This document shows, in pieces, positions 16,571 through 41,322 of a DNA stretch of 64,000 bases. A program made the position numbers and the translations under genes. This DNA is from Candidatus Saganbacteria bacterium. Its GTDB lineage: Bacteria > Margulisbacteria > WOR-1 > O2-12-FULL-45-9 > XYB2-FULL-48-7. Position 1 is the first letter of the stretch. Every line of letters starts with the position of its first letter. The stretch covers positions 2,376 through 66,375 of the forward strand of contig JAFGHC010000039.1 in assembly GCA_016939335.1 (NCBI GenBank), read 5' to 3'. The notes under the pieces were generated by a model. The model saw only the letters and a list, made by a program, of their open reading frames with translations. It was not told where the DNA came from and ran no database searches.

Positions 16571-16646
16571 ATATTGGTGAAGTGGGTTTACCCGTCAGGC
16601 AGGGGCTGGTATAATTGGAAAAGTCAAAAGTTAAAAGTCAAAATTT

Positions 16647-17927
16647 ATGAAGAAAACAATACTTTTAATAACTCATGAGACGCCGGTCGAGCAGGCGGTC
16701 AGAAGTGCGCTGGACGGTTTTAGCATAGAAACAGCCGGCGCCCCCGAAGCCGCCGCTGAAAAGCTGCGCCAGAGCAAGCCCGCCCTCGTCATCCTCGATC
16801 ACGACCTGAAGCAGGACGAGGGCCTCCAGCTCTTCCGCCAGCTCCGGCTGCTGGCGCCCGCCACCGGCTTTATCCTCCTTTCACAGCAGAATGATATCCC
16901 CACCGCGGTGCAGGCGGCCAAGCTCGGCGCGGCCGATTTCCTGCAAAAACCGGCCGGAGCCAAGGCACTGCGGCTCTCCGTCGAGCGGAACCTGGCCGCG
17001 GCCGAAGGATCGGCCCTGGCCGCCGCCGGCCTCCCCTGGCTGCAGGGCGAGAGCCCGGCGCTGAAAAAGATGTTCGAAGCGATCGGCGGCGCGCTGCTGA
17101 CGCGCGCCAGCCTTATTCTGGTGGCGGAGCGGGGGATCGACAAAAGCGATGTGGCCGACTGCATCCACCGGCGCAGTCTCAAGCGCAAAAGCCGCCTGCG
17201 GGTGATCGACCTCGCCTCTTTCCGCCGGGAGGACCTGGAAGGGTCGTTCTGGGCGACGGTGCAGGAGGCGGCGGGGGAGAACCAGGCCGCCGACGAAGAG
17301 GACCGCTGCGGCACGCTTTATCTCGAGAATATCGAAAGTTTGGAAGAGAGCTTCCGCTTGAGCATTTTCGAGTTTTTCAAGGAGAAGAAACCGAAGCTCG
17401 ATCCCGAAGTTCTGATCGTGATCGGCCTCTACGACCCGCATGCTCTGCCGCCCGCGCTGGCCAAACATTACCTGCAGGTGCCGGTCCCGCCGCTCTGCGA
17501 GCGCAGGGGCGACCTGCCGCTTTTGGTCGGCCGCGAGCTGGCGGCGCTCTCGCTCCGGCACGGGAAGAACGTCAACGCTCTCTCCGCCGACCTGCTTTAT
17601 CTTCTCGGTCTTTACGATTTTCCCGGCAATTACCATGAGCTCTCGGCGCTGCTCGAGATCGGCGTGCTGGCGGCCGGCGGCGAGGTGATCGGGCTGGCCG
17701 ACCTGCCGCTCGATTTCCGGACGCTGCTGCAGGCGGCGGTCACCGCGGCGCACGTCAAAGGGGAGTTGAGTTTGGAAGCGGCCCGGCGCTGGCTGGAAAA
17801 GCTGGCTTACAAAACGCTGCTGGCCAAAACGAAGTCCGATCCCGGGGCGGTAGCGCGTTTCCTCGACCTGCCGCGCACGGCGCTGGCCGAGCGGGCGGCC
17901 GAACTAGGCACTGACCTGCTTAATTAA
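16647..17927 (+). CDS. NtrC-family response regulator with a degenerate sigma54-activator ATPase domain and a C-terminal Fis-type HTH
   Basis: REC-like N-terminus (ALVILDHDL). The central domain is AAA+-like, but the Walker A position reads AERGIDKS rather than GESGTGK. C-terminal HTH ARFLDLPRTALAERAAELG. Confidence 0.65.
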   Translation: MKKTILLITHETPVEQAVRSALDGFSIETAGAPEAAAEKLRQSKPALVILDHDLKQDEGLQLFRQLRLLAPATGFILLSQQNDIPTAVQAAKLGAADFLQKPAGAKALRLSVERNLAAAEGSALAAAGLPWLQGESPALKKMFEAIGGALLTRASLILVAERGIDKSDVADCIHRRSLKRKSRLRVIDLASFRREDLEGSFWATVQEAAGENQAADEEDRCGTLYLENIESLEESFRLSIFEFFKEKKPKLDPEVLIVIGLYDPHALPPALAKHYLQVPVPPLCERRGDLPLLVGRELAALSLRHGKNVNALSADLLYLLGLYDFPGNYHELSALLEIGVLAAGGEVIGLADLPLDFRTLLQAAVTAAHVKGELSLEAARRWLEKLAYKTLLAKTKSDPGAVARFLDLPRTALAERAAELGTDLLN

Positions 17928-19235
17928 CTCCTCGGCCCGTTCCTTCGTTTTGGCCTCGGCGATGATCCTGACGATCGGTTCGGTGTTGGACGGGCGGATA
18001 TGGATCCAGCCGTCGGGATAGACCGCTTTCACCCCTTCGGTCAGGACAAGGTTGCCGCCGCTGAACACTGCTTTGCTTTTTTCAAGGAAAGCAGCCGCCT
18101 CCGCCTGGCTCCCGCATTCGACTTTCGTCTTGATCATCTCGTAACGGGGGAGTTCGGCCGCGAGCTGCGAAATTTTTTTGCCGCTGCCCGCGACAAGGGA
18201 GAGAATGAGCGCGGCGCCGGAGAGACTGTCGCGGTTCCAGCCGACTCCCGGCAGGATCACCCCGCCGTTCCCTTCGCCGCCGATCACCCCGCCGAGGCGC
18301 TTGAGCTCTTCCGTCACGTTGACCTCGCCGACCTTGGTCCGGACGAGCGTCGCGCCCGCTTCGCGGCAGACATCGTCCATTACCTGGCTGGTCGAAAGAT
18401 TGACGACGACGGTCGGCTGGCCGCCCGGTTTCGTCCCCAGCAGGTATTTGGCCGCCAGGGCGAGCGTCAATTCTTCGCCGATCGCTTCCCCCGTATCGGA
18501 AACGATCGCCAGCCGGTCGGCGTCGGAATCGACGGCAAAACCGAGGTCGGCCTTTTTCTTCCCGACCAGTTCCATCAATTCCCCGAGATTGGCCGCGACC
18601 GGCTCGGGGTCGTGCGGAAAAGGGAGCGTGATGTCGCAGTTGAGCGGCAGGACGCGGCAGCCGAGTTTTTTGAGCAGTTTGACGAGCGCTTCCGAGCCGG
18701 CGCCGTTGCAGCCGTCGACGGCGACCTTGAGCCGCGCTTGTCTGACCGCGACGGCGTCGATCTGCTGTTCCAGCACTTTCTTGATGTGGCAGTCCGTCCC
18801 TTTGCGATAACCGATAACCTTTCCTCCGGGAGCCCGGCGGAACTTCTTCCCCTCATAGATCTTGAGGAAATCGGCCCCTTCCGCCCCGTTAAGGAAAATG
18901 CCGCTCCCGCGCATGAACTTGAGCCCGTTCCACGGCAGGGGATTGTGCGAAGCGGTGATGACGATCCCGCCGGCGGCCGCCAGCTCGCGCGTCATGATCC
19001 CGACGGTCGGCGTCGGCGCGACGCCGAGGTCGATAACTTTGCAGCCGGCCGAAAGGAGCCCGGCGAACATTATCCCTTTGATCGGTTCCGACGAGCGGCG
19101 CGGGTCGGTCCCGATGACGACCGTCCCCCCTTCAAGATAAGTGCCGAACGCTTTGGCCAGGTCGAGGCAGACGTCGGGGGTGAGCGAATCGGGGACGGTC
19201 CCTCTCACGCCGGAGATCGAGATGATGAGTGTCAT
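17904..19235 (-). CDS. glmM: phosphoglucosamine mutase / phosphohexomutase family (GlmM-like)
   Basis: SGVRGTV N-terminus, active-site TASHNP, four-domain length (443 aa). Confidence 0.75.
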   Translation of the reverse strand: MTLIISISGVRGTVPDSLTPDVCLDLAKAFGTYLEGGTVVIGTDPRRSSEPIKGIMFAGLLSAGCKVIDLGVAPTPTVGIMTRELAAAGGIVITASHNPLPWNGLKFMRGSGIFLNGAEGADFLKIYEGKKFRRAPGGKVIGYRKGTDCHIKKVLEQQIDAVAVRQARLKVAVDGCNGAGSEALVKLLKKLGCRVLPLNCDITLPFPHDPEPVAANLGELMELVGKKKADLGFAVDSDADRLAIVSDTGEAIGEELTLALAAKYLLGTKPGGQPTVVVNLSTSQVMDDVCREAGATLVRTKVGEVNVTEELKRLGGVIGGEGNGGVILPGVGWNRDSLSGAALILSLVAGSGKKISQLAAELPRYEMIKTKVECGSQAEAAAFLEKSKAVFSGGNLVLTEGVKAVYPDGWIHIRPSNTEPIVRIIAEAKTKERAEELIKQVSA

Positions 19236-19276
19236 GAGGTTATTATAACCAGCTGGGCAAGTTTAGGCAAACTTAT

Positions 19277-19314
19277 GAGCGGACAAAGGGCGGGACAAGG
19301 GCAAGGGAAGAAGG
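19277..19314. repeat. family-5 purine-rich G-tract element (GGACAAAGGGCGGGACAAGGGCAAGGGAAGAAGG)
   Basis: Four GGG runs separated by 1-4 nt (GGGcGGGacaaGGGcaaGGG), a canonical G-quadruplex motif. Related copies at 21253-21415 and 26901-27045. Confidence 0.55.
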
Positions 19315-19358
19315 TGCGTAACCGCGCCCCGGCCATTCGGGCATTCGCGGCTTATTCT

Positions 19359-20273
19359 TTATCCTTTACTGCCGGCCCTAGCCGCTTCGATCAGGCGCTG
19401 AAAGATCAGTGCGATATCCTTATTAGGGCTGTAAAGAAAGCTGAATTGCGAGTGGTTTTCACGATATGGCCCGTAGATCGGCACGCCGGCTCTGTCAAAA
19501 CCATAAAAATAGACAGGGTCATACCACTTTTTATCCATGGTCAAGCCATTGGTATCCAGATGCTTAAGCGGAACGTCCGCTTCGACGGTCGCCCACCAGG
19601 CATCAAAGTTGTTCGACAGCCAGAGACGGAAGCCCGGGTTGGCCAATGAGAGGGAGACCACAGGCAAAATGACCGACTTGCTGTTATGCGAACCAACCAC
19701 ATTAAAGATGCTCCCCTTTGGATCGGCTGCCAGCCCGGCTGCTCGCAGATCGTCCAGCATATTGAACTGGGCCCTGGCGTTTGATGCCCAGGCGCTGCGG
19801 TTGCCGTCCGGGGGATTGCGTCTGATCCATTGCCCCAGACTCAAGCAATCTTTAGTTTCGCAGAGCGCCGCCGCGGCGACGAGCCGGCCGAAAACAGTTT
19901 CAAAATTCGCGGCGGTAGCAAAGCTGAACGTCGAGCGATCTTCTTCGTAATTTAGGTAGATCGGGAAATTGCTCCCTTCGTAGCGTCCCTCGGAACTGGC
20001 CGGCCGCATTTCTTTGGTGTCCAGCCTGATCTCCCGGGCGAGGCTGACGGAAACCTGCAGCTTGCCCCCGGGCAGTTCGTGCGCGTGCAGCGTCAGGCCG
20101 AGCTGATCGAGTAAGATGGTGGAAACAGGCGAAGAGAAATCCCCCCGGATGTAAGTTCCTGACTGGCAGGCGAACCCGCTGCCAGTCCTGTCAAGCAGAG
20201 TGACTGCGGCCTGCAGCCTCCTGCTTAGGTTTGATCCGGCCGGTTGTGTTGGAGCGGTCCGTTCCATTCTCAT
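19359..20273 (-). CDS. hypothetical protein, paralog A of a tandem pair
   Basis: 304 aa; starts MRMERTAPTQ and ends AARAGSKG. Shares YGPYRENxxQFS, ADPxS and WLSN motifs with the adjacent gene. Preceded by the RBS AAAACGGAGGAAATTTTATG. Confidence 0.6.
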   Translation of the reverse strand: MRMERTAPTQPAGSNLSRRLQAAVTLLDRTGSGFACQSGTYIRGDFSSPVSTILLDQLGLTLHAHELPGGKLQVSVSLAREIRLDTKEMRPASSEGRYEGSNFPIYLNYEEDRSTFSFATAANFETVFGRLVAAAALCETKDCLSLGQWIRRNPPDGNRSAWASNARAQFNMLDDLRAAGLAADPKGSIFNVVGSHNSKSVILPVVSLSLANPGFRLWLSNNFDAWWATVEADVPLKHLDTNGLTMDKKWYDPVYFYGFDRAGVPIYGPYRENHSQFSFLYSPNKDIALIFQRLIEAARAGSKG

Positions 20274-20289
20274 AAAATTTCCTCCGTTT

Positions 20290-21171
20290 TTATCCTTTAC
20301 TGCCGACCTTGGCCGCGTCGATCACGCGCTGGCAGAGCGGCAGGAAATTGGCGCCGGCATAACGCAGGCTGAACTGTGCCCGGTTTTCCCTGTACGGACC
20401 GTAAACCGGCGCCGCGGCGTCGCGGAACCCTTTGAAAGCCGATGGCCTTGGCCGGTAAGCCCCCGCCCGACCCAGACGGAGAGCGATGGCCCGCGCGTTA
20501 ACCGACAGATGCGAGCGGAAAAGATCATTGGACAGCCAGCAGTCGAGTGCCAGGTTTGGCAGGGAAAAGCGGACCACGGGCAGGCCGAAAAGCTCCCGGC
20601 CGTAAAAGAGATCATGTTCGCCGATCACGCTGAAAACGCTCTCCGGATCGGCAGCAAGACAGGCGGCGCGCAGCCTCTCCAGCCTGGCGAACTGGCTTCC
20701 GGCTTTTGTTCCCGGGAGAACACACATGGTGTTCCGCTCTGACCATTCAGCCAGACTCAAACTGTGTTCGCCCTGGTGCCTCAAGGCCGCCGCCGCTGCC
20801 ATGACCAGCTGGCCGACGACGGTTACGGGGTTCCAATAGGTAGTAAAGCTGAAGCGCGAGTGATTTTGATGATAGTCCTGATAAAGTGGGAAGCTGTGGC
20901 CTTTATCGCCCGAAAGGTCTTGCTTCTCGGCCGGCAGCGTTCCCGTGGTATCGAAACTTATTTCCCTTCGCGTGGCGACCGACATCATCAGCCTTGGCGA
21001 GACGGCCTCTCGTATCGTTACTTGCAGCCCGACGCCCGGCAGCCAGAAGACCGCGTGGTTTCCGTGGATCATTGTTGAGCCGTGGTGGTCGAGGCCCGCG
21101 GCCGCTTGATGCAATCTATCCAGTTTTGCTCTTGATCTTAAAGTTGTTGTGCCGGTCCGTTCTATGTTCAT
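20290..21171 (-). CDS. hypothetical protein, paralog B of a tandem pair
   Basis: 293 aa; starts MNIERTGTT and ends AAKVGSKG. Same motifs and the same upstream leader (AAAACGGAGGGAATTTTATG) as paralog A. Confidence 0.6.
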   Translation of the reverse strand: MNIERTGTTTLRSRAKLDRLHQAAAGLDHHGSTMIHGNHAVFWLPGVGLQVTIREAVSPRLMMSVATRREISFDTTGTLPAEKQDLSGDKGHSFPLYQDYHQNHSRFSFTTYWNPVTVVGQLVMAAAAALRHQGEHSLSLAEWSERNTMCVLPGTKAGSQFARLERLRAACLAADPESVFSVIGEHDLFYGRELFGLPVVRFSLPNLALDCWLSNDLFRSHLSVNARAIALRLGRAGAYRPRPSAFKGFRDAAAPVYGPYRENRAQFSLRYAGANFLPLCQRVIDAAKVGSKG

Positions 21172-21252
21172 AAAATTCCCTCCGTTTTTATCGGGCAGTT
21201 TCCACCTTGAATTTATCTTAACCTTCCGGCGGAAATTTCACTTTTTTCAGAC

Positions 21253-21415
21253 AGGGGGCAAGAGAAAAGGCAAGGGAAGGCAAGGAAGGGCGGGATAAAG
21301 GGCAAGACAAAAGGCGCCTTCTGTTCCGCCTTTTGCCCCGCCTTCTGTCCCGCCCTCACGTGCCTTCATGTGCCGTTTGTCCCGCCTTCTGTCCCGCCCT
21401 CTGTCCCCATTGCAG
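21253..21415. repeat. family-5 purine-rich / pyrimidine-rich palindromic repeat
   Basis: Purine arm GGGGGCAAGAGAAAAGGCAAGGGAAGGCAAGGAAGGGCGGGATAAAGGGCAAGACAAAAGGCG. It is followed by its complement-like pyrimidine arm, with CCGCCTTCTGTCCCGCCCT repeated three times. Located in the divergent promoter region between paralog B and the Memo gene. Confidence 0.6.
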
Positions 21416-21446
21416 TTTTATTTCATTTATATTATATTAATGAGCA

Positions 21447-22229
21447 ATGAGCATCGTTTTCGCCGCGATCATGCCGCATCCGCCGATCCTTGTTCCGCCG
21501 ATCGGCAAAGAGCGCTTAAAGGACGCGGAAAAAAGCAAGCTGGCGCTGGAAGAGATCTCCCGCCGTTTTAAAAATCTTGATTTCGATACTATCGTCGTCA
21601 TCACGCCGCACGGCGACGTCGGCCAGGCCTCGGTCCCCGTCTACACCGGCCACGTTTTCGAGGGGAACTTCGGGGCGTTCGGCCTGCCCAAGCCTTCTTT
21701 CGTCTATAAAGGCGACCCGCAGCTCGGCCTGGCCGTCGTCAAGGATTCGCCGCTTGCCACCGCCTGCCCGGAGACGATCCTCGACCACGGCGTCCTCGTG
21801 CCGCTCTATTATCCGACCGCCGCCGGGATCAGGAAACTCCTCCTGCCGATCGCCGTCGGCTTTCTGCCGCTCTCAAAATTGTTCGAGTTCGGGCGGTCGC
21901 TCGCGCGGACGATCGACCGGCTCGGCCGGAAAGTTCTGCTGATCGCTTCCGCCGACCTGTCGCACCGGCTGACGCACGAGGGGCCGGGCGGCTACTCGCC
22001 GCGCGGCAAGGAATTCGACGACAAGCTGGTCGGGCTGGTCGGCAGTTACGACGTGAACGGGCTCCTGAAATTCGATCCCGACCTGGCGGAAGAGGCCGGG
22101 CAGGACGCCCTCTGGTCGATCGCGATCCTGCTCGGCGCGCTCGACGGTAAAAAGGTCGGGCCCGAGGTCATTTCTTACGAGGGGCCGTTCGGCGTCGGTT
22201 ATCTGGTCGCCGCTTTAGAGGTGAACTGA
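21447..22229 (+). CDS. AmmeMemoRadiSam system protein B (MEMO1 / extradiol-dioxygenase class III-like)
   Basis: N-terminus [20 protein letters not shown] and HGDVG are typical of the Memo/LigB family; 260 aa. Confidence 0.75.
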
Positions 22230-22741: not shown

Positions 22742-22744
22742 GAC

Positions 22745-22865
22745 AAAGTCAAAATTAAAAAGTCAAAAGTCAAAAGTGCAATTCAAAAGTAAAAAGTTGA
22801 CGAGCGTGGGTAAATTTTGAATTTTTACTTGTAATTTTGAATTTTTACTTTTGACTTTTGAATTA
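22745..22865. repeat. family-3 inverted repeat built from TCAAAAG and CAAAAGTAAAAA units
   Basis: Left arm AAGTCAAAATTAAAAAGTCAAAAGTCAAAAGTGCAATTCAAAAGTAAAAAG. The right arm is its near reverse complement (TAAATTTTGAATTTTTACTTGTAATTTTGAATTTTTACTTTTGACTTTTGAATT). AT-rich island in a GC-rich intergenic region. Confidence 0.7.
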
Positions 22866-22905
22866 GAAGGCCGTATCTTATGTTAAAGGGGAGTCGATGT
22901 AAGCT

Positions 22906-23958
22906 ATGTTGAAAGTTGGTATTATCGGGGCGGGCGGCTACGCCGGGGCGACGCTGATCAATCTTTTGCTGCGCCACCCGGAAGCCGCGATCGTCTGGCT
23001 GATGTCGGAGGACGCGCACCAGGGGAAAAAGATCGCCGATCTCTATCCGCATTTGACGGGGCAACTCAACCTCGCCTGCCAGACGCTGGCCGACCTTGAC
23101 AAGAATTTAAGCTCCATTGATCTCGTTTTCCTGGCCCTGCCGCACGGCATCGCTATTAATTATGTCCCCAGGATCATTGACGCCGGCAAGCGGGTCGTCG
23201 ACCTCGGGGCCGATTACCGCTTCGCCGACAACGCCGTCTTTAAAAAATGGTACGGCCTCGAGCACGCGACGGAAAAATATTTAAAACAGGCGGTCTTCGG
23301 CCTGCCCGAGCTCTACCGCGCCGAGATCAAGAAGACAAAGCTCGTCGGCAACCCCGGCTGTTATCCGACCGCCGCGATCCTCGGCGCGGCGCCGCTCGTG
23401 AAGCACGGCCTGGTCGAGCTCGATTCGCTCATCGTCGACGCCAAATCGGGCGTTTCCGGCGCGGGGCGCGGCGTCTCGCTCAAGGCCCACTTCTGCGAGC
23501 GGAACGAGGGGCTCGAGGCTTACGCCGTCACCACCCACCGCCATATGGGGGAGATAGAATATCAGATCAGCAGAATATCAGGGGGCCAGATAAACGTAAC
23601 GTTCGTCCCCCACCTGACGCCGATGACGCGCGGGATTTTGGCGACGATCTATGCCAAAGTCAAAAGTCAAAAGTCAAAAGTCAAAAATGAGGAATTAACG
23701 CAATTATATAAAGATTTTTATAAGGGCGAGCCGTTTGTCCGGGTCTTTGACGATAAATTGCCTAACACCAAGTTCGTGGCGGGGACCAATTATTGCGACA
23801 TCGGCGTGCAGTACAACGAAGCGACCGGGCAGGTGATCGTCATTTCGGCGATCGATAACCTCGTGAAAGGCGCGGCCGGCCAGGCCGTCCAGAACATGAA
23901 CCTTCTCTGCGGCTTCCCGGAAACGACTGCGCTCCAGCAGCTCGCCGTCTACCCATGA
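22906..23958 (+). CDS. argC: N-acetyl-gamma-glutamyl-phosphate reductase
   Basis: MLKVGIIGAGGYAG Rossmann N-terminus and catalytic GNPGCYPTA motif. An in-frame AAGTCAA x4 tract lies at 23656-23688. Confidence 0.9.
   Translation: MLKVGIIGAGGYAGATLINLLLRHPEAAIVWLMSEDAHQGKKIADLYPHLTGQLNLACQTLADLDKNLSSIDLVFLALPHGIAINYVPRIIDAGKRVVDLGADYRFADNAVFKKWYGLEHATEKYLKQAVFGLPELYRAEIKKTKLVGNPGCYPTAAILGAAPLVKHGLVELDSLIVDAKSGVSGAGRGVSLKAHFCERNEGLEAYAVTTHRHMGEIEYQISRISGGQINVTFVPHLTPMTRGILATIYAKVKSQKSKVKNEELTQLYKDFYKGEPFVRVFDDKLPNTKFVAGTNYCDIGVQYNEATGQVIVISAIDNLVKGAAGQAVQNMNLLCGFPETTALQQLAVYP
23656..23688 (+). repeat. tandem heptanucleotide tract (AAGTCAA x4) inside the argC coding sequence
   Basis: AAAGTCAAAAGTCAAAAGTCAAAAGTCAAAAAT encodes KVKSQKSKVK in frame. 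The same heptamer builds the intergenic family-3 repeats at 16621 and 22745. Confidence 0.75.
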
Positions 23959-25061
23959 GCATCACCGCGCCGGAGGGCTTTACCGCGGCGGCGCTCGCCG
24001 CCGGCATCAAACAGTCGGGCAACCTCGACCTCGCCCTCATTTATTCCGAGGCGCCGGCGGCGGTCGCCGGAGTTTTTACCGGCAATAAATTCAAGGCGGC
24101 GCCCGTTCTTATTTCGCGGAAGCACATCAAGTCCGGTCTCTGCCAGGCGATCATCGCGAACGCCGGCTGCGCCAACTGCGGCACCGGCCGGCAGGGCCTG
24201 GCCGACGCCGAACTGATGGCGGCCGAGGCCGCCCGGGCGCTCGGCCTCAAACCGGAACATGTCCTTGTCACCTCGACCGGCTCGATCGGCAAGTTCCTGC
24301 CGATGAAAAATATCGTGCCGGCCATCCGGCCGCTGGCCGCGAAACTCGCGAAAGCGGGCGGGGCGGACGCCGCGCGGGCGATCATGACGACCGACACGCG
24401 CCCGAAGGAGATCGCCGTCAAAGTTGACGGCTACACCGTCGCCGGGATCGCCAAGGGCTCCGGCATGATCCATCCGGATCTGGCGACGATGCACGCCTTT
24501 ATCACCACCGACGCGGCGGTCCCGCGTGCGCTGCTGCAGAAATTCCTCAAGCAGGCGGTCGCCGTTTCGTTCAACATGACGACGGTCGATCAGTGCCAGT
24601 CGACCAACGACTGCGTCTTCGCGCTGGCGAACGGTCTCTCCGGGTCGCGGGTCACGAGTCACGGGTCGCAGGCGCGGTTTTACAAGGCGCTGGCAGCGGT
24701 CTGCGTTTATCTGGCCAAGGAGATCGCGCGCGACGGGGAGGGGGCGACCCAGCTGATCGAAGTACGGGTCAGCGGCGCGCGCAGCGACAAGGAAGCGCGG
24801 CTGGCCGCGCGCGCCATCGCCGGTTCCGATCTTTTGAAATGCGCCGCCTACGGCAGGGACTATAATCCCGGCCGGGTCCTGGCGGCGGCGGGCGCGACCG
24901 GCGTCCGGCTCGATCAGGACCGGATGACCGCTGACATGAAATTCCTTGATAAAGAAACGATCGTTACCTGTGACCTGGGCGTTGGCAAAGCTTCGGCCGT
25001 CGCCTGGGGCTGTGATCTGACCGAAGGGTACATTAAAATAAACGCGGAGTACCATACGTGA
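23955..25061 (+). CDS. argJ: bifunctional glutamate N-acetyltransferase / amino-acid acetyltransferase
   Basis: Autoprocessing motif GMIHPDLATMHAFITTDA (ATM-T) and DGEGATQLIEVRVSGA. Confidence 0.9.
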   Translation: MSITAPEGFTAAALAAGIKQSGNLDLALIYSEAPAAVAGVFTGNKFKAAPVLISRKHIKSGLCQAIIANAGCANCGTGRQGLADAELMAAEAARALGLKPEHVLVTSTGSIGKFLPMKNIVPAIRPLAAKLAKAGGADAARAIMTTDTRPKEIAVKVDGYTVAGIAKGSGMIHPDLATMHAFITTDAAVPRALLQKFLKQAVAVSFNMTTVDQCQSTNDCVFALANGLSGSRVTSHGSQARFYKALAAVCVYLAKEIARDGEGATQLIEVRVSGARSDKEARLAARAIAGSDLLKCAAYGRDYNPGRVLAAAGATGVRLDQDRMTADMKFLDKETIVTCDLGVGKASAVAWGCDLTEGYIKINAEYHT

Positions 25062-25197
25062 ACAATCAAATAACAAACAACAAATTACAGACAATACCAA
25101 ATTGCCGAAATTCTAATGTTCAAAACGGCGCTGTTTATTCACTTTGATCATTGTGATTTAGAAATTGTTTGTTATTTGATGCTTGTTATTTGTTATT
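25062..25197. repeat. family-2 AT-rich MITE-like element, copy A
   Basis: Terminal inverted repeats CAAATAACAAACAA ... TTGTTTGTTATTTGATGCTTGTTATTTGTTATTT. An internal GTTTGTTATTTGATGCTTGT 20-mer and ATACCAAATT are identical to copy B at 41323-41455. Confidence 0.7.
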
Positions 25198-25217
25198 TAT
25201 GAGGAATGGAGGCATGA

Positions 25218-26084
25218 ATGTTTAAGCATCTGATCAGACGCGCTAACGCGGTCCTGGAAGCTCTGCCGTACCTGACCAAGTTCAACGGCAAGACGATCGT
25301 CGTTAAATACGGCGGCGCGGCGATGCAGAGCGACGAGCTCAAACAGGGAGTGATCCAGGATATCGTCCTGCTCAAGATGTGCGGCATGGAGCCGATTCTT
25401 GTCCACGGCGGCGGCCCCGAGATCAACAAGTACCTGCGCAAGAAGGGGATCGAGCCGAAGTTCGTCGGCGGTTACCGCGTCACCGATAAGGAGACGATGA
25501 AGATCGTCCAGAAAGTGCTCGGCGAAAAGATCAACCAGCAGATCGTTTCGCTGATCAAAAAAGCGGGCGGCAAGGCCAAGGGGTTCTACGGCAAAAAGGG
25601 CCGCGTGATCAAAGCTTTCAAATACTGGAAGAAGGATGCCGAGGGGAACAAGCTCGACCTCGGCTTCACCGGCCAGGTCGGCGGCATCCGCTACCGCTAT
25701 CTCAACAAGTGGATGAAGCTCGGCTACATCCCGGTGCTGACCTCGATCGGGGTGGGGAAGCGCGGCGGCATCTACAATATAAATGCCGACAAGGCGGCGG
25801 CGGCGATCGCCGCCTACCTCAAGGCGGAAAAGCTGATCATGATGACCGACGTGCAAGGGGTCCTGGAGGGCGGCAAGCTGGTCTCCGAGCTGAACACCTA
25901 CCGGGCGGAGAAGATGATCAGGCAGGGCTCGATCTCCGGCGGCATGATCCCCAAGGTCAAGTCGTGCCTCTACGCCCTGCGCAAAGGGGTCAAGACCGCG
26001 CACATCATCGACGGCCGCCTGCCGCACTCGATCCTCCTCGAGCTCTTCACCGACCACGGCATCGGCACGATGGTAAGGAAATAG
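25218..26084 (+). CDS. argB: acetylglutamate kinase
   Basis: KTIVVKYGGAAM N-terminus; 288 aa. The 3' end is duplicated downstream (see the insertion finding). Confidence 0.9.
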   Translation: MFKHLIRRANAVLEALPYLTKFNGKTIVVKYGGAAMQSDELKQGVIQDIVLLKMCGMEPILVHGGGPEINKYLRKKGIEPKFVGGYRVTDKETMKIVQKVLGEKINQQIVSLIKKAGGKAKGFYGKKGRVIKAFKYWKKDAEGNKLDLGFTGQVGGIRYRYLNKWMKLGYIPVLTSIGVGKRGGIYNINADKAAAAIAAYLKAEKLIMMTDVQGVLEGGKLVSELNTYRAEKMIRQGSISGGMIPKVKSCLYALRKGVKTAHIIDGRLPHSILLELFTDHGIGTMVRK

Positions 26085-26092
26085 GGGGCAAG

Positions 26093-26870: not shown

Positions 26871-26900
26871 ACCACGGCATCGGCACGATGGTACGCAAAT

Positions 26901-27045: not shown

Positions 27046-27089
27046 AATTCCCTGAAATTTCCCGGCCCCCCTGCCGAAGAATAACTGTT

Positions 27090-27608: not shown

Positions 27609-27614
27609 AAACTT

Positions 27615-27790
27615 TCTTCAACCACCCAACCCCTCTCCCCCTGGGAGAGGGCGTAAACGACAAAATATTGTATGACGAGAAATTGGGTGAGGGCTGTTCG
27701 CTTCTCCAGCTTCACCGCCTTTCCCCTCTCCCTCTGGGAGAGGGGGGCCGGTTTGTGTAAGCGGGTGAGGGCTGTCTCAAAGTGCCGCTA
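27615..27790. repeat. tandemly duplicated ~85-bp unit, each copy with a CCCCTCTCCC..GGGAGAGGG hairpin and a GGGTGAGGGCTGT motif
   Basis: Hairpins at 27630-27653 and 27723-27747; GGGTGAGGGCTGT at about 27685 and about 27764. Lies between the convergent 27090 gene and gltX. The hairpins are not followed by T-runs. Confidence 0.5.
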
Positions 27791-29207
27791 TCGCCTTGTC
27801 CAGCCTCGCGCCGACCTTCTCTTTCCCCAGAATGGCGACCACATCGTACATCGGCGGGGTTTCGGCGCGGCCGGAGAGGGCGAGGCGGCACGGGTGGATG
27901 ACGGCGCCGAGTTTCAGCTTCATCTCTTCTGCCAGAGTTTTGAAAACCGGCTCGATCTTCTCTTTGGCGAAAGGCTCAAGCGCGGCCAGGCGGTCCTTCA
28001 AAGTCGTCAGGATAACTTTTGCGTTCGCCGTCTTAAAATGCTTCTCGGCCGCCTTGGGGTCATATTCAAAATCATCTTTAAAGAAATAAGCCGAGAGCCC
28101 GACGATCTCGGGGATGAGGACCAGCCGGTCCTGGAAGACCGCGACGACTTTTTTCATGTACGCCAGGTCGTGCCTGCCGTAAGCGTCGATGAGGAGCGGT
28201 TCGCACAGGTCGAAGAGCCGCTCCGGCAGCAGCTTGCGGATATACTGGCCGTTCAGCCACTTGAGCTTTTCCATGTCGAAGACCGCCGGGTTCTTCGTCA
28301 CCCCGTCGAGCGAAAAGAACTCGATCAGCTCCTGCCGGGAAAAGACCTCCTGGTCGCCGTGCCCCCAGCCGAGCCGGGCGATGTAATTGATCATCGCTTC
28401 GGGCAGATATCCCAGGCCGTTGTACTCGATGACCGAGGTCGCGCCGTGCCGCTTCGACAGCCGCGCTTTGTCCCGGCCGAGGATCATCGGCAGGTGGGCG
28501 AATTTGGGGAGCGCCCAGCCGAACGCCTGGTATAATAAAATTTGGCGCGGCGTGTTGGAAAGATGGTCGTCCCCGCGGATGACGTGCGAGATTTCCATCA
28601 GGTGGTCGTCGACCACGCAGGCGAAATTGTAGGTCGGGAAGCCGTCCGACTTCAAGATGACGAAGTCGTCGAGCACTTCGTTCTGGAAAACGACCCGCCC
28701 GCGGACCAGGTCGTCGACCGCCGTCTCGCCGACCGGCGGCAGCCGGAACCGGATGACGTACGGCGTCCCGGCGGCCAGTTTGGCCTTGAGCTCTTCGGCG
28801 GAGCGTTTGCGGCAGGTGCCGTCGTAGCGCGGCGCCTCTTTTCTGGCTTCGGCTTCTTTCCGGCGCTGCGCTAGCTCTTCCGCCGTGCAGAAACAGTAGT
28901 AGGCTTTGCCTTCGTCGACCAATTGTTGCGCGTATTTCTGGTGGAGCGCCAATCTTTCCGTTTGGTAATAGGGGCCGAATGGGCCGCCGGTGTTGGGACC
29001 TTCGTCCCAGTCGATCCCCAGCCATTCGAGGCCGTGAAAGATCGCTTTGTTGGCCTCAAGCGTCGAGCGCTCCCGGTCGGTGTCCTCGATCCGCAGGATG
29101 AACTTGCCGTTCAGGTGGCGGGCGAAGAGCCAATTGAAGAGCGCGGTCCGCGCGCCGCCGATGTGCAGGGCGCCGGTGGGGCTGGGTGCAAAGCGTACTC
29201 GTACCAT
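27777..29207 (-). CDS. gltX: glutamate--tRNA ligase
   Basis: MVRVRFAPSPTGALHIGGARTALFNWLFARH (HIGH motif) and KLSKRHG (KMSKS). Confidence 0.9.
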   Translation of the reverse strand: MVRVRFAPSPTGALHIGGARTALFNWLFARHLNGKFILRIEDTDRERSTLEANKAIFHGLEWLGIDWDEGPNTGGPFGPYYQTERLALHQKYAQQLVDEGKAYYCFCTAEELAQRRKEAEARKEAPRYDGTCRKRSAEELKAKLAAGTPYVIRFRLPPVGETAVDDLVRGRVVFQNEVLDDFVILKSDGFPTYNFACVVDDHLMEISHVIRGDDHLSNTPRQILLYQAFGWALPKFAHLPMILGRDKARLSKRHGATSVIEYNGLGYLPEAMINYIARLGWGHGDQEVFSRQELIEFFSLDGVTKNPAVFDMEKLKWLNGQYIRKLLPERLFDLCEPLLIDAYGRHDLAYMKKVVAVFQDRLVLIPEIVGLSAYFFKDDFEYDPKAAEKHFKTANAKVILTTLKDRLAALEPFAKEKIEPVFKTLAEEMKLKLGAVIHPCRLALSGRAETPPMYDVVAILGKEKVGARLDKAIAAL

Positions 29208-29222
29208 GTATAATATTCTATC

Positions 29223-31613
29223 ATGTTATTAAGGCAGGCGATCGTTTGTTGCTTGCTGGCGGCGCTTGCTGGCGCGTCTTTCGCCGACGACCTTGGCCAT
29301 CTGCTCTTGAAAGGCGGCGTCAGCACGCGCGCGCTCGGGATGGGCGGGGCGTTCTCCGCCGTGGCGGACGACGCCGGCGCCGTCTTCTGCAATCCGGCCG
29401 GGCTGGCCGAGCCGGGGTTCGGCTACACCACCGGCAGCCTTGATTCGCAGCTGACCAGGAACGAGTTCACTTACAGCGCGCTCAAACTTGGCTACCTCGG
29501 TTACTCCGAAGGGAAAGTGGCCGGCCCCGGCGTCGGTCAGGTCACTTTCTCCGCCTTTGGTTTCGGCAACCGCTACGGCTGGCTCAACTGGGGGACCAAT
29601 TACAAGACGTTTAGCGCGACGATCGGCGGAGCGGCCAGTGAAGGCTGGAGCGGCGATCTCGGCCTGCTGCTGCGCATCACGCCGCAGTTCAAGGTCGGGG
29701 TCGTGGCGCGCGAAGTCCTGACGACGCAGGCGCGGCTGGCGCCGGCTTCCCTGCGGCTCGGCCTCGGCTACAGGCCGTTCAACAATAATCAGCTCGTGCT
29801 GGCGGCCGACGCCGAGCTCTATCGCTCACTCCCTTACGAAGGCCACCTGGGGGTCGAATCGAGCCTGGTCCCGGGGCTGACTTTCCGCGGCGGCCTTGAC
29901 GGCAGCCACCCGACCGCCGGCGCTTCGCTCGACCTCGCCTTTTTCACGCTCGATTACGCGCTCCAGTTCCTCCCGGGCGACCAAAATATCCAGCGCTTCG
30001 AGGCGGGGCTGAAATTCAACCTTGGCCGCGAGCGCCCCTTCTCCTTTATCAAGCCGAAGGAATTCGTCATCATCGACGTCAACGGCTTGCTCAAGGGCGG
30101 GCAGTCGGAGATCAGCCTGCTCGGCGGCTACCGGTCGGGGCTTGATAGCCTGCTCGAGCAGGTCCGCGCCGCCGAAAAGGACGGCTCGATCGACGGGATC
30201 TTCCTCCGCCTGGGCGGCTTTTCCGGCGGGCTGGGGGGCGCGGCAGTCGTCCAAGAACTGCGCGCCGAGCTGCTGCGCGCCAAAAACAAGGGGAAGAAGA
30301 TTATCGCCTATGTCGAGGACTCGGCGCTCGGCGACGAATATTATCTTGCCTCGGTCGCCGACAAGATCGTGGCGGCCCCGGGGGCGGCGATCGGCGGCTT
30401 CGGCCGCAGCCTCGAGATTTACCGCTTCGGCGGCCTGTTCAAGAAATTCGGCGTCGATTACCAGGTGAAGTATAAAGGCAAGTACAAGTCTTCCTTCGAC
30501 TGGCTTGCCGGTTCGCTGAGCGCCGAGCAAAAAGAGATGATGGAAGGGCTCGTTGGCGATATTTACCGGCAGATGCTGACCGATATCGCGGCCAGCCGTA
30601 AGATGAAGATCGAGAAGGTCAAGGAGATCGGCGACGGGATGATCTTCCCGGCCGGCCTGGCGCTCAAGATGGGGCTGATCGACCGGGTCGGTTTCTTCCG
30701 CGACGCCTCGGTCGCCGCCAACGAGCTTTACGGCAACAAGGACGAAGTCAAGATCGTCCAGCCCAACCTGCTTGAGCCCGAAGAGTCGTTCTTCAGCCAG
30801 CTCTTCGGCGTGGCGGTGATCGAGGTTGACGGCGAGATCGTCGAGGGCGACAGCGGCCAGAACCTAGTCTTCGGCGGCAGCTATGTCGGCGCCGACAAGC
30901 TCGCGCGCGACATCCGCGGCGCGGCCGATGATCCGTTCGTCAAGGCGCTGCTCGTGCGCGTCAACAGCCCGGGCGGCTCGGCGGTCGCCGCCGGCGAGAT
31001 CTACCAGGCGCTCCAGTACGCGCGGGAAAAGAAAAAAGTCATTATCGCCTCGCTGGGCGACGTCGCCGCCTCGGGCGGCTATTATGTGGCGGTCGCCGCC
31101 GACAAGATCGTGGCCGATCCTTCCAGCATCACCGGCAGCATCGGCGTGATCGGCGCCTTCCCCGTCTATCACCGGCTGATGGAAAACTGGGACGTGGCCG
31201 CCGACGAGGTCAAGGAGGGGGCGCACGCCGACATGTTCTCCGGCCTCCGCCGCTTCTCGACGATCGAGAGCGAAGCGGTCGACCGGATCTTTGACGAAAC
31301 ATACCGGACGTTCGTCAATGCGGTGGCGGCCGGCCGGAAGCTGGCGACCGCCGAAGTGGAAAAGCTGGCGCAGGGCCGCGTCTATACCGGCAACCAGGCG
31401 CTGGCGGTCAAACTGGTCGACAAGCTTGGCGGCTTCAGCGACGCGGTCGAACTGGCCAAGTCGGAGGGAAAGGTCAAAGGCGAGGTGCGGCTCATCTATT
31501 ACCGGCGGCTCAATCCGCTGCTGCAGTTCGGGCAGGGGGTCAGTTCAGCTCTCGGCTTCCGCCAGCCGTTGCTCGATCTGCCGGCCCTGGGCCGGACGTT
31601 ACAATATAAGTGA
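29223..31613 (+). CDS. sppA: signal peptide peptidase SppA (67K tandem-domain type) fused to an N-terminal PorV/FadL-like outer-membrane beta-barrel domain
   Basis: Residues 1-270: signal peptide, then GGVSTRALGMGGAFSAVADDAGAVFCNPAGLA (FadL/OMPP1/PorV-type N-terminal signature), alternating beta-strand pattern, ending ...EAGLKFNLG. Residues 280-796: two ClpP/crotonase-fold SppA repeats (GGFSGGLGGAAVV...IAYVEDSALGDEYYLASVADKIVAAP and LVRVNSPGGSAVAAGEIYQAL...IASLGDVAASGGYYVAVAADKIV). Confidence 0.75.
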   Translation: MLLRQAIVCCLLAALAGASFADDLGHLLLKGGVSTRALGMGGAFSAVADDAGAVFCNPAGLAEPGFGYTTGSLDSQLTRNEFTYSALKLGYLGYSEGKVAGPGVGQVTFSAFGFGNRYGWLNWGTNYKTFSATIGGAASEGWSGDLGLLLRITPQFKVGVVAREVLTTQARLAPASLRLGLGYRPFNNNQLVLAADAELYRSLPYEGHLGVESSLVPGLTFRGGLDGSHPTAGASLDLAFFTLDYALQFLPGDQNIQRFEAGLKFNLGRERPFSFIKPKEFVIIDVNGLLKGGQSEISLLGGYRSGLDSLLEQVRAAEKDGSIDGIFLRLGGFSGGLGGAAVVQELRAELLRAKNKGKKIIAYVEDSALGDEYYLASVADKIVAAPGAAIGGFGRSLEIYRFGGLFKKFGVDYQVKYKGKYKSSFDWLAGSLSAEQKEMMEGLVGDIYRQMLTDIAASRKMKIEKVKEIGDGMIFPAGLALKMGLIDRVGFFRDASVAANELYGNKDEVKIVQPNLLEPEESFFSQLFGVAVIEVDGEIVEGDSGQNLVFGGSYVGADKLARDIRGAADDPFVKALLVRVNSPGGSAVAAGEIYQALQYAREKKKVIIASLGDVAASGGYYVAVAADKIVADPSSITGSIGVIGAFPVYHRLMENWDVAADEVKEGAHADMFSGLRRFSTIESEAVDRIFDETYRTFVNAVAAGRKLATAEVEKLAQGRVYTGNQALAVKLVDKLGGFSDAVELAKSEGKVKGEVRLIYYRRLNPLLQFGQGVSSALGFRQPLLDLPALGRTLQYK

Positions 31614-31857
31614 TGTCGTCAGGGTAGATCATCCCCAGCTTCGTTTTTGCCGTTTTTTCGATATAAGCGAGGTCCTCTTCCCGGGCCGCCTGGCTTCCCA
31701 GCGTCCGCGCCAGGCTGCTCAATTCCGCCCGCTTGATCTTCAGGTCGGTGATCCGGTAGGTCAGCGCCATGTTCTGCGCGTACATGTATAAATGGGCGGC
31801 GGCCAGGACCAGGAAGAGGATGAGGACCGCGACCGCTTTCCGGAAATTACTGTTCAT
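31540..31857 (-). CDS. ftsL: FtsL-like cell-division protein (single TM)
   Basis: MNSNFRKAVAVLILFLVLAAAHLYMYAQNMALTYRITDLKIKRAELSSLARTL: short cytoplasmic tail, TM helix and coiled coil. Immediately downstream of rsmH with an ATGA overlap. C-terminal part has low-complexity composition and overlaps the sppA 3' end convergently. Confidence 0.5.
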   Translation of the reverse strand: MNSNFRKAVAVLILFLVLAAAHLYMYAQNMALTYRITDLKIKRAELSSLARTLGSQAAREEDLAYIEKTAKTKLGMIYPDDITYIVTSGPGPADRATAGGSRELN

Positions 31858-32723
31858 AGTTTCTCCGCCGCCCGCAGCTTGGCGCTCCGCGCCCGCGGGT
31901 TGCCCGCCAGTTCGGCCACCCCGGCCGTCACCGGCTTTTTGGTCAGCGGCTTCAGTATACCATTTTGGGCGGCTGACCTGAACAGCCGCTTGACGGCCCG
32001 GTCCTCCAGCGAATGGTAAGAAATAACGACGAGCCGCCCCCCCGGTTTGAGGAGCCCCAGCGCCTGGCCAAGCGCCAGTTTCAAGCTGTTCAGCTCGTCG
32101 TTGACGGCGATGCGCAGCGCCTGGAAGACGCGGGTGACCGACTCTCTTTTCTTCCACGTCGGGATCGCCTTTTCCACGATCCCTTTTAACTCAAAGGTGC
32201 TTGTCACGGGCCGCGAGTCGCGGGTCGCGACGATCGCCTTGCTGATCCGGCGGGAGAACTTCTCTTCCCCGCACTCATAAAAGAGCTTCGTCAGCTCTTC
32301 GGCCGGCCAGTTATTGACGATCTCGGCGGCGGTCAGCTTGCCGCGCCGGTCCATCCTCATGTCGAGCGGCCCGTCATGCTGCAGGCTGAAGCCGCGCCCC
32401 CCTTCGTCGAGCTGGTAGGAGGAAACTCCGAGGTCAAAAAGTATCCCGTCGACTTTTTCTTTGACGTGCTCTTTTAGGCGCGCGAAGTTATCGTGGACGT
32501 ATTCGATGTCCGAAAAGCCGGCTAAGTTCTTCCGGGCAGCTGCCAACGCGTCGGCGTCCCGGTCAAAGCCGATAATTTTGATTTTTGATCTTTGATCTTT
32601 GATTTTAGACGCGTGCCCCCCGCCGCCCAGCGTTGCGTCCACAAAAACCTTGCCGTCCGCCGGTTTCAGGAACGCCGCCGCCGCTTCGGCCAGCACGGGC
32701 TCGTGTTGATAGGCAATGGTCAT
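31854..32723 (-). CDS. rsmH: 16S rRNA (cytosine1402-N4)-methyltransferase
   Basis: GGGGHASKI...IGFDRD and DLGVSSYQLD motifs. An in-frame ATCAAAG x4 heptamer tract lies at 32575-32606. Confidence 0.85.
   Translation of the reverse strand: MTIAYQHEPVLAEAAAAFLKPADGKVFVDATLGGGGHASKIKDQRSKIKIIGFDRDADALAAARKNLAGFSDIEYVHDNFARLKEHVKEKVDGILFDLGVSSYQLDEGGRGFSLQHDGPLDMRMDRRGKLTAAEIVNNWPAEELTKLFYECGEEKFSRRISKAIVATRDSRPVTSTFELKGIVEKAIPTWKKRESVTRVFQALRIAVNDELNSLKLALGQALGLLKPGGRLVVISYHSLEDRAVKRLFRSAAQNGILKPLTKKPVTAGVAELAGNPRARSAKLRAAEKL
32575..32606 (-). repeat. tandem heptanucleotide tract (ATCAAAG / ATCAAAA x4 on the coding strand) inside rsmH
   Basis: Plus strand TTTTGATTTTTGATCTTTGATCTTTGATTTTA. It encodes SKIKDQRSKIKI between the GGGH and IDRD motifs. 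Confidence 0.7.
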
Positions 32724-36245: not shown

Positions 36246-36255
36246 AAGGCATGAG

Positions 36256-41305: not shown

Positions 41306-41322
41306 TACTATAGTATATAATA

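Follow-up and report, generated by a model that had tools for sequence, protein, structure and literature searches.

Heptanucleotide arrays are translated as part of conserved enzymes in a Candidatus Saganbacteria bacterium. In the 64,000-nt stretch of contig JAFGHC010000039.1 (assembly GCA_016939335.1, positions 2,376 to 66,375) analyzed in this study, in the following called the window, tandem 7-nt units run in frame through argC and rsmH, and a third, GC-rich array through argJ. Saganbacteria are part of the Margulisbacteria/WOR-1 group, a sister lineage of the Cyanobacteria. On balance we favor the explanation that these tracts are translated arrays similar to the cyanobacterial short tandemly repeated repetitive (STRR) sequences, with a length set by the reading frame and units kept alike by concerted evolution. 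We likewise lean towards regarding the coding tracts as long-lived, length-locked cassettes and not as on/off switches. The genes and their arrays are as follows.

22906-23958, plus strand: argC, N-acetyl-gamma-glutamyl-phosphate reductase, 350 aa, 100% identical to ArgC of a Candidatus Saganbacteria metagenome-assembled genome (MAG)
23656-23686, plus strand: perfect (AAAGTCA)x4.4 array, in frame in argC and codon-aligned, encoding KVKSQKSKVK; 100% matches (Tandem Repeats Finder, TRF)
23955-25061, plus strand: argJ, 368 aa, assigned by synteny and by Pfam ArgJ in relatives
24641-24677, plus strand: GC-rich period-7 array CGGGTCG CGGGTCA CGAGTCA CGGGTCG..., in frame in argJ, encoding SRVTSHGSQ
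31854-32723, minus strand: rsmH, 16S rRNA m4C1402 methyltransferase, 289 aa, 100% identical to RsmH of a Candidatus Saganbacteria MAG
32576-32606, minus strand: array AAAATCA AAGATCA AAGATCA AAAATCA AAAT (sense), x4.4, 91% matches, in frame in rsmH, encoding KIKDQRSKIKI

An earlier prediction from the sequence of the window (the original prediction) had placed such repeats at four loci, two intergenic and two inside argC and rsmH. All four are present, and both tracts within these conserved enzymes are indeed translated in frame. The two genes had been thought to contain the same heptamer. The rsmH unit, however, is a 1-2-nt variant and thus a relative of the argC unit. The argJ array and the presence of several heptamer families in the window had been overlooked. 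On the plus strand the rsmH array reads TTTTGAT x4.4, and within the gene it is placed directly after the GGGGH S-adenosylmethionine-binding motif. The plus-strand form (TTTTGAT)n corresponds to the heptad that is repeated in the ctxAB promoter of Vibrio cholerae, probably by coincidence. In argC the G+C content at third codon positions is about 0.3 within the tract versus 0.77 for the gene as a whole.

Translated arrays at orthologous sites

The tract sites were compared in the 120 best homologues of each of ArgC and RsmH, all from Saganbacteria, Margulisbacteria or WOR-1. Peptides were decoded against all 11,260 stop-free heptamers, and a match required at least 7 out of 10 positions. Heptamer-periodic peptides were found at the tract site in 72 out of 118 ArgC homologues and in 70 out of 117 RsmH homologues, compared to 2 and 1, respectively, in shuffled controls. 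Hence, about 60% of the orthologues of both enzymes carry a heptamer-encoded peptide at exactly these sites, with differing units. In ArgC these peptides follow GILATIYAK and include KVKSQKSKVK (AAAGTCA), KIKDQKSKIK (AAGATCA), KLKIKNSKLK (AAATTAA), KLRITNYELRI (AATTACG), KIRNPKSEIRI (AAATCCG), KIQNPKSKIQ (AAAATCC), and KFRIPNSEFRI (AATTCCG). KMTNDKLQMTN corresponds to an AAATGAC unit in which the TGA is broken. The remaining ArgC homologues have a non-repeat loop of the KLKQKTDSKQ type. RsmH follows the same pattern directly after GGGGH, with KVKSQKSKVK in homologue P0137.

At the DNA level, arrays at the same codon consist of (AAAATTA)x5 in locus L081, GAATTAC/GAATGCC in L082 and L205, GAAATNC in L083, AAGATCA in L206, and AAAGTCA in L204, L224 and L225; no array is present at this site in the DNA of L001 and L207. 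At the ArgJ site AAGTAAA arrays were found in L081 and L226, and a native segment shorter by 5 residues in L082 and L083. Tract length is constant (13-residue class) in dozens of orthologues with quite different units, and register as well as 3' boundary (…N-E-L-T) are identical across units and clades.

Orthologues lacking the tract, whose comparison the original prediction had proposed, have a native loop. The RGI...PFV segment of ArgC comprises 34 residues in tract-less Saganbacteria and in 21 out of 31 sequences from other phyla, and 37 residues if the tract is present, so that the 31-nt array stands in for about 22 nt of native sequence. The net gain amounts to about 2 residues in RsmH, 5 in ArgJ, and about 1 in the leucyl-tRNA synthetase (LeuRS) of Patescibacteria. 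Judged from these lengths, the arrays replace a native segment and are not simple insertions. The same loop encoded by non-repetitive DNA in distant orthologues, which had been named as a possible counterargument, was not encountered: orthologues have either repetitive DNA or a native non-repeat loop at this position.

AlphaFold2 models indicate that the sites are compatible with the protein folds. In the ArgC model (mean predicted local distance difference test score, pLDDT, 88) the tract forms the loop 253-260 between strand 244-252 and helix 261-271, with locally lower confidence (pLDDT about 75). In the RsmH model (mean pLDDT 93) it is predicted with pLDDT >90 as helix 36-44, a short loop, and the start of strand 49-53. 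Tract-less relatives build the same helix-loop-strand from AERLL-RAGA-KVIAFD. Since these elements are native there, the RsmH array would encode part of the Rossmann fold and not a decoration. The earlier notion that each tract replaces a similarly sized surface loop thus seems correct for the size (3 additional residues in ArgC, about 2 in RsmH) and for the modeled ArgC loop, but not for the helix-loop-strand of RsmH.

Pairs of relatives provide information on the mode of tract change. ArgC sister pairs at 92-94% identity bear different tracts, which differ in unit spelling but not in length. The genes of L204 (AAAGTCA) and L205 (AATTACG/AATGCC) are 88% identical at the DNA level; over a block of 33 nt with nearly identical flanks, each unit is spelled differently, and the alignment has no gap. 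L206 (tract) and L207 (native) differ by the replaced block plus 9 nt, and the elevated divergence in the surrounding 150 nt or so suggests that alleles were exchanged by recombination. The RsmH array of the window likewise has the same length and register as the AAAGTCA array of RsmH from L226. In ArgC of L225 (69% amino acid identity) 10 out of 10 tract codons are identical to those of the window, and in ArgC of L224 (71%) 9 out of 10; a simple calculation puts the probability of such agreement by chance at about 0.01 and 0.002, respectively. Codons for identical residues outside the tract are only 50-65% identical in these two comparisons. Arrays at the ArgJ site form a graded series in G+C content, from AAGTAAA (0.17-0.19; L081, L226) via GGTCAAG (0.61; L224) and CAGGGGC (0.76; L225) to CGGGTCG (0.78; window), with a GTCA-like core in common, at one position and of similar length. 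As a sequence series, this argues for gradual in-place change. Furthermore, unit variants are common to several loci within a genome, namely AAAGTCA in the window and in L224, and AAAGTAA in L081.

The coding cassettes occupy fixed positions that are conserved at orthologous sites across the phylum. According to our proposal, these positions are structurally tolerant, and the cassettes would be inherited there as tolerated passengers rather than selected elements. As 7 is not a multiple of 3, successive units fall into different frames, so that an array is translated in all three of them. Only stop-free units would then survive, and only in the stop-free orientation, which is the A-rich strand for the AAAGTCA family. 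An example of this stop filter is the L081 argJ array, which has replaced a unit that would give TAA. Array length would be frozen, as adding or removing a single unit shifts the frame and would be purged. As each position of the unit would serve as first, second and third codon position at once, synonymous drift would be coupled to amino acid change under homogenization. Units would change together by concerted evolution, either through templated misalignment or gene conversion within the array, with exchange with other arrays of the same genome as a possible contributor. This would result in the in-register respelling at constant length between close relatives. Three-frame constraint and concerted evolution in combination would account for perfect periodicity, atypical codon usage, long-range codon identity, in-register respelling, and the graded G+C series. 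Within the window, the AAAGTCA family is represented in three settings: an A-rich leader lacking a Shine-Dalgarno motif, paired inverted arrays, and translated cassettes in argC and rsmH with a GC-rich derivative in argJ.

Period-7 repeats in the window and in other contigs

The window has a G+C content of 59.6%, and TRF detected several AT-rich period-7 unit families in it, namely AAAGTCA, AAATTCG/AAATCCG, AACAAAT, and TAACTTA. The proposed dispersed heptamer family was confirmed by a two-unit probe for the AAAGTCA family allowing up to 2 mismatches, which gave 15 matches in the window versus 0.18 expected; none of 100 shuffles attained 15. The density of period-7 arrays (TRF) was 40.6 per 100 kb in the window versus 5.6 in 1.3 Mb (1295 kb) of control DNA. 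The latter comprised 78 argC loci from other phyla obtained by a genome-collection ArgC scan, which was dominated by universal ArgC motifs and yielded 2 Margulisbacteria loci. Exact tandem repeats of period 7 with at least 3 copies numbered 8 in 208 kb of Saganbacteria/Margulisbacteria DNA versus 2 in the control, and none occurred with periods 5, 6, or 8-12. About half of the arrays with a TRF score of at least 38 in these 208 kb are located within stop-free spans or genes, and most AT-rich arrays of the window are intergenic. An Rfam scan detected tRNAs only (n=4) and no RNA family at any array.

The idea of a single family throughout a contig was not borne out. Other arrays on contigs with (AAAGTCA)n were within one mismatch of this unit in 16% of cases versus 8% in the control, which is a weak enrichment. 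Genomes therefore carry several families.

Intergenic members of the AAAGTCA family and associated promoter-like matches are located at two places.

16587-16615, plus strand: sigma-70-like promoter match TTTACC-17-TATAAT with TG; 10/12 matches plus extended -10 TG, consensus match only
16619-16643, plus strand: AAAAGTC x3.6 direct array, 88% matches (TRF), in the spacer between histidine kinase and response regulator genes
22745-22797, plus strand: left A-rich arm of an inverted repeat, AAAGTCA family x7.7 (TRF)
22813-22864, plus strand: right T-rich arm, AATTTTG x7.6, units TTTTGAA/TTTTTAC/TTTTGAC (TRF)
22851-22879, plus strand: promoter-like TTGACT-17-TATCTT; 9/12 matches, consensus match only

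The first array fills its spacer and ends 3 nt before the response regulator ATG at 16647, and no Shine-Dalgarno motif (GGAGG) is present. With the promoter-like match directly upstream, the array probably constitutes the whole 5' leader. Locus L081 has a positional counterpart in the same spacer (AAAAGTA units, 3623-3654); in other relatives the spacers upstream of argB and further genes are occupied by arrays that extend as far as the start codon. Arrays ending exactly at start codons comprise 16619-16643 of the window, 7158-7194 and 8058-8090 of L205, and 8258-8282 of L224.

The inverted repeat at 22745-22864, described as 120 bp in the original prediction, was found with facing arms of 43-44 nt that are 77-81% complementary and 26 nt apart. 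The RNA fold of -29.1 kcal/mol (z = -2.7) indicates that it is hairpin-capable. It represents an insertion, since AMMECR1 and argC abut in relatives without the spacer. When the repeat was considered as a candidate miniature inverted-repeat transposable element (MITE), inverted arms were seen and relatives proved to lack the element at the orthologous site; the window contained no further copy, and no target-site duplication was identified at the repeat. A TTTTGAC unit of the T-rich arm supplies the -35-like TTGACT of the match at 22851-22879, which lies 27 nt before the argC ATG, and may thus contribute to a promoter. Outside genes, where no reading frame constrains the array, copy number changes freely: an orthologous intergenic array of ACTCCGA/ACTCCCA units upstream of a LigB-family gene has 11.6 copies in L204 (879-959) and 4.7 copies in L205 (3612-3644).

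The occurrence of the family was further analyzed by a metagenome contig scan for exact (AAAGTCA)3+AAA, which by exact matching is biased toward perfect arrays. The sequence was found on at least 120 contigs with G+C contents of 0.29-0.66. Among the 129 matches listed, to which the counts and host genes in this paragraph also refer, 36 were inside a long open reading frame (ORF) with at least 60 residues on both sides, 15 close to the 5' end of a long ORF or immediately before it, 10 near the 3' end, and 68 non-coding or in a short ORF. Host genes assigned by Pfam were AlaRS, LeuRS (two loci), CysRS, GltX, PheT, GatB, LigA (two), RecG (two), PriA, TopA, UvrB, UvrC, PolX, a 5'-3' exonuclease, MurB, MurD, DapF, ThyA, AhcY, Tgt, QueA, MiaA, PrmC, LepA, and a cysteine desulfurase. 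The sense strand of arrays inside genes was always the A-rich one, because TGA is present in the complement, and three units are sufficient to bring this stop codon into every frame. Of the arrays flanked by at least 80 stop-free codons on both sides, 31 out of 32 keep one frame. The only out-of-frame array, in L117, is at a gene end, is followed by an inverted partner array, and belongs to a HIP1-containing contig. In L117 (1400-1480) the (AAAGTCA)n array at the 3' end of the gene pairs with the following T-rich array like a terminator hairpin, and the next ORF (1594-2439) contains heptamer-type peptides (IQNSEFKIQNEQISIQNLKSKIQNP). HIP1-rich contigs of the cyanobacterial type also hold (AAAGTCA)n, almost always outside genes (1 out of 23 internal).

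The only low-GC locus assigned to a phylum was L147, which encodes a LeuRS of Patescibacteria. In its orthologues, 35 out of 104 peptides at the hairpin before TTRPDT matched a heptamer at 7 or more out of 10 positions, compared to 2 after shuffling; they include KVKSQKSKV, KVKSEKLKV, RIKNYESRI, SITNYELRI, KIKNSKLKI, and others. Nested hairpin-repeat peptides also occur at this LeuRS site. Longer in-frame inserts are present at the same hot spots in Patescibacteria LeuRS, before TTRPDT (P0243-P0266, P0352), and in RsmH (P0134, P0184, P0197, P0199, P0239). Their peptides (…SPQAPRNDS…, …AKQSRNN…, SPLERGEGRV, PSPFSMERG, SPSPxGRGG) resemble translated hairpin-type dispersed repeats. A 21-nt insert GCCGTGCCTGCCGGCAGGCAG, containing the palindrome CCTGCCGGCAGG, is located within the coding array of L082 ArgC (10770-10790) and adds AVPAGRQ. 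Similar peptides (VPAGRQ, LPAGR, PAGG) split the arrays of ArgC in P0015, P0016, P0062 and P0071 and of RsmH in P0129, P0173 and P0230; a search of the fetched loci for CYGCCGGCRG in AT-rich context yielded the L082 instance only. Exact (AAAGTCA)3+AAA was also found in 16 IMG/VR viral contigs (L208-L223), two of which are labelled as giant-virus MAGs. AATGACA-type units extend the AMMECR1 N-terminus in frame in L205 (4462-4494; MTNDQYQMTN), and in L226 (1637-1669) the same family lies in the opposite, stop-free orientation in a radical-SAM gene and encodes the hydrophobic SFDICHLSFVI.

Other repeats were observed in the window. A second, larger family, AAATTCG/AAATCCG, is partly self-complementary and forms palindromic arrays in at least five intergenic spacers, at the following positions.

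946-978: palindromic AAATTCG/AAATCCG array
3826-3910: palindromic AAATTCG/AAATCCG array
33521-33610: palindromic AAATTCG/AAATCCG array
34560-34680: palindromic AAATTCG/AAATCCG array
36150-36247: palindromic AAATTCG/AAATCCG array

The AAATCCG unit encodes KIRNPKSEIRI in ArgC of other lineages, and an exact (AAATCCG)x4 is present at 4743-4770 of the Planctomycetia control locus L048. Two copies of a palindromic element of about 150 bp (25060-25205 and 41315-41460) are 83% identical and MITE-like in appearance. Their ends consist of AACAAAT/ATTTGTT heptamer-like arrays, and each copy fills an intergenic spacer up to a start codon, that of argB at 25218 and that of an ORF at 41403. Three tRNA genes are clustered at 419-761 (419-491, minus strand; 612-683 and 690-761, plus strand), with inverted heptamer arrays of TAACTGA/TATAAGT-type units in the interval from 491 to 612 (495-530, 579-612). 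A further tRNA gene (7756-7828, minus strand) is located inside the upstream part of a long mechanically called ORF (4904-7861, minus strand), so that the true start of this ORF lies further downstream. The only notable AT-rich tandem array of the window with a period other than 7 is GATTATCA x4.1 (period 8, 88% matches, 54294-54326), between two convergently oriented ORFs.

Competing explanations

Several observations weigh against translated, length-locked arrays under concerted evolution as a complete explanation. In a simple neighbor-joining distance tree of ArgC with the tract masked, alleles with a tract, native alleles, and the various unit families are intermingled at all levels, tract-bearing and native alleles even among sisters at 92% identity, which needs recurrent gain or allele exchange by recombination besides in-place evolution. 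Arrays of 31-37 nt replace native sequence with only 1-5 extra residues, and insertion followed by tolerance alone fails to explain such an origin. A few units (AAAGTCA, AATTACG, AAATCCG, AAAATCC, AAAACTC) recur in ArgC, RsmH, and Patescibacteria LeuRS, whereas arbitrary units would be expected from drift and homogenization alone. This shared repertoire may be due to filtering for units that are hydrophilic and stop-free, or to a conserved recognizing factor or a mobile source. Moreover, the period-7 arrays ranking highest in perfection within the window are the two coding ones, in argC and rsmH, and the homogenizing mechanism itself is one that we infer. Because near-equal-length overwriting of native sequence, the interleaving of alleles among close relatives, and the unit repertoire recurring across genes and phyla fall outside the preferred explanation, a nucleotide-level function and an active, site-preferring mechanism are live rivals.

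There is a modest chance that selection acting on the DNA or RNA sequence itself maintains the arrays as cis-elements. An S1/Csp-type protein could bind the A-rich RNA, a nucleoid protein or sigma factor could recognize TTGAC-containing DNA, or the A-rich mRNA arrays of argC and the response regulator leader could engage in 'velcro' pairing with a transcribed T-rich arm. Selection of this kind would fit the AAAGTCA tract remaining codon-identical at 69-71% protein identity, although three-frame reading together with homogenization can yield codon identity without function. It would also fit the limited unit repertoire common to genes and phyla, but units are respelled freely between close relatives, and a sequence-specific partner would need to co-vary. 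Exact (AAAGTCA)n on at least 120 contigs of very different G+C content, the perfection of the coding arrays of the window, the arrays ending exactly at start codons, as do TAACTGA repeats (PMC4679880), and the -35-like TTGACT provided by the T-rich arm upstream of argC point in the same direction. On the other hand, the argC tract is present in relatives without the upstream inverted repeat, many orthologues have no tract, and no Rfam family was found at any array. Similarly tentative is the proposition that heptamer arrays, instead of being passive microsatellites, are an actively written or recognized sequence class common to Cyanobacteria-related phyla and Patescibacteria. A conserved factor or templated mechanism might overwrite defined stretches of essential genes and of spacers from a small unit repertoire (AAAGTCA, AATTACG, AAATCCG...), keep them homogeneous, and possibly employ them as a regulatory code in RNA or DNA.

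We consider it rather unlikely that every lineage gained its tract independently and recently through recurrent, site-targeted insertion of a very small element, mobile or templated, drawn from the heptamer families of its genome. Copy-choice, retro-conversion, or break repair with reiterative copying would be suitable mechanisms and would explain the hot spots. The interleaving of tract and native alleles and of unit families at all depths of the ArgC tree is what such a process would produce, as are near-perfect arrays with codon usage very unlike that of the host genes and replacement in place of simple insertion. The same sites gather other small elements (the 21-nt insert with CCTGCCGGCAGG, the LeuRS hairpin-repeat peptides), several loci per genome have a unit variant in common (AAAGTCA in the window and L224, AAAGTAA in L081), and (AAAGTCA)n occurs in viral contigs. 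The identical length, register, and 3' boundary across clades fit one origin better, however, the graded G+C series of ArgJ argues for in-place change, and there are no target-site duplications, terminal repeats, or associated enzyme.

The original prediction regarded the tracts as domesticated repeat insertions and potential hypermutable sites, at which slipped-strand gain or loss of one 7-nt unit would frameshift the gene. Its general idea of repeat DNA embedded in genes was retained here, but phase variation is not supported, and contingency loci at which such slippage would turn argC and rsmH off and on are very improbable. Four to five perfect 7-nt copies are a slippage substrate in principle, and the orthologous intergenic array with 11.6 versus 4.7 copies illustrates length change. 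Inside genes off-frame products were not seen, even though the arrays are slippage-prone DNA: 31 out of 32 arrays among the matches listed are in frame, the exception being at a gene end, and length is constant across orthologues and sisters. Identical tract-bearing proteins were found on 2-6 independent contigs, and the targets are dozens of core housekeeping enzymes, not surface or restriction-modification genes.

Selection for a lysine-rich flexible segment, for example for solubility or RNA contact, with an incidental DNA period, has hardly any probability. Nearly all coding units have an A-rich sense strand and yield K/S/Q/N/E/I peptides, and the RsmH tract is confidently modeled as regular secondary structure. 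Peptide selection, however, would neither make nor keep a 7-nt period, identical codons, and AGT and TCA serine codons in register, and the peptides at these sites vary widely, from KVKSQKSKVK, KLRITNAELRI and KFRIPNSEFRI to the GC-rich SRVTSHGSQ. As sole explanation it is contradicted by the DNA periodicity. An assembly artefact is practically negligible: short repeats are prone to mis-assembly, but these 31-nt arrays are shorter than a sequencing read, are in frame, and recur at orthologous sites in independent JGI, ENA, NCBI and Logan assemblies. A diversity-generating retroelement target, a programmed frameshift site, an iteron or DnaA-type repeat, and a Rho or Hfq site found no support in the sequence.

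Known repeat systems and significance

Heptanucleotide repeats have been known from cyanobacteria since 1990 and are the most over-represented class of long simple sequence repeats (SSRs) in many bacteria. The units of STRR1-3 are CCCCAGT, TTGGTCA, and CAACAGT. The arrays studied here share with STRR sequences tandem 7-nt units in at least 3 copies, several families per genome at many dispersed loci, and restriction to period 7. They are likewise often located between co-directional genes, sometimes as hairpin-capable inverted pairs, in a phylum that is sister to the Cyanobacteria. Their units are not those of STRR1-3, although the GC-rich xxGGTCA units of argJ resemble that of STRR2, and the host is not a heterocystous cyanobacterium. 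For cyanobacterial STRR arrays and heptanucleotide SSRs (Mazel et al. 1990; Mrazek et al. 2007; both cited in PMC4692102 and PMC4679880), over-representation has been described in many bacteria, together with an intergenic location, frequently between genes of the same direction and in some cases as inverted copies, and with under-representation in coding regions (PMC4692102; PMC4679880). Among the GGGAATC and GGGGAYT heptamer repeats of Xanthomonas and Nostoc, 7-11% of those of Xanthomonas overlap an ORF at least partly, and detailed work on heptanucleotide repeats is scarce (PMC4692102). In contrast to this predominantly intergenic location, the tracts of argC, rsmH and argJ are coding and in frame in core enzymes; across the phylum they occupy orthologous sites, where the length is locked and the unit changes.

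In-frame repeats in housekeeping genes have been described as Rickettsia palindromic elements (RPEs), which are selfish palindromes of about 150 bp adding a module to the protein (Ogata et al.; PMC10969869). Like these, our tracts are a dispersed repeat in frame in unrelated housekeeping genes, translated and, according to the models, compatible with the fold. RPEs, however, add a conserved peptide module of about 50 residues, whereas the tracts are direct arrays of 7-nt units of 24-40 nt with almost no net gain and respelled between relatives. Beggiatoaceae, Cyanobacteria and Bacteroidetes have direct TAACTGA repeats of 2-6 copies that end a few nucleotides ahead of start codons, in many cases with no ribosome-binding site present (MacGregor 2015, PMC4679880). 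They were proposed as translational regulator sites, and strains differ mostly by 7-nt indels; few are within ORFs, and those are not in conserved enzymes or at orthologous sites (PMC4679880). The leader array at 16619-16643 and the arrays in the pre-argB spacers of relatives similarly end just before the start codon, but the leader unit is AAAAGTC, and TAACTGA-like units occur in the window only at 495-526. With contingency loci of Haemophilus and Neisseria the tracts share a short tandem repeat in the coding region with a unit length that is not a multiple of three; they differ in housekeeping targets, in the absence of length polymorphism in genes across orthologues, and in frame retention among the matches listed. 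Elhai et al. reportedly described in 2008 small dispersed palindromic repeats nested in tandem heptamer arrays of Nostoc. The CCTGCCGGCAGG insert splitting the L082 ArgC array and the VPAGRQ/LPAGR peptides splitting other ArgC and RsmH arrays are similar, except that they lie within coding arrays and that one instance is at the DNA level.

In the literature searched, which was mostly open-access, no account of repeats in Saganbacteria or Margulisbacteria was found, nor any report of heptamer arrays that lie in frame in core enzymes at orthologous positions. The coding tracts provide a natural experiment: because the frame locks the length of orthologous arrays, unit turnover, homogenization, and constraint are measurable against host gene divergence. 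The tracts imply that core enzymes of Saganbacteria/Margulisbacteria and Patescibacteria tolerate fixed-site segments that are under repeat rather than codon dynamics. This is relevant to annotation and alignment of proteins of candidate phyla and to structure prediction, and it affects phylogenomics because tract segments are not homologous residue by residue. It also bears on whether repeats of this kind should be seen as junk, as regulators, or as the product of an unknown mechanism.

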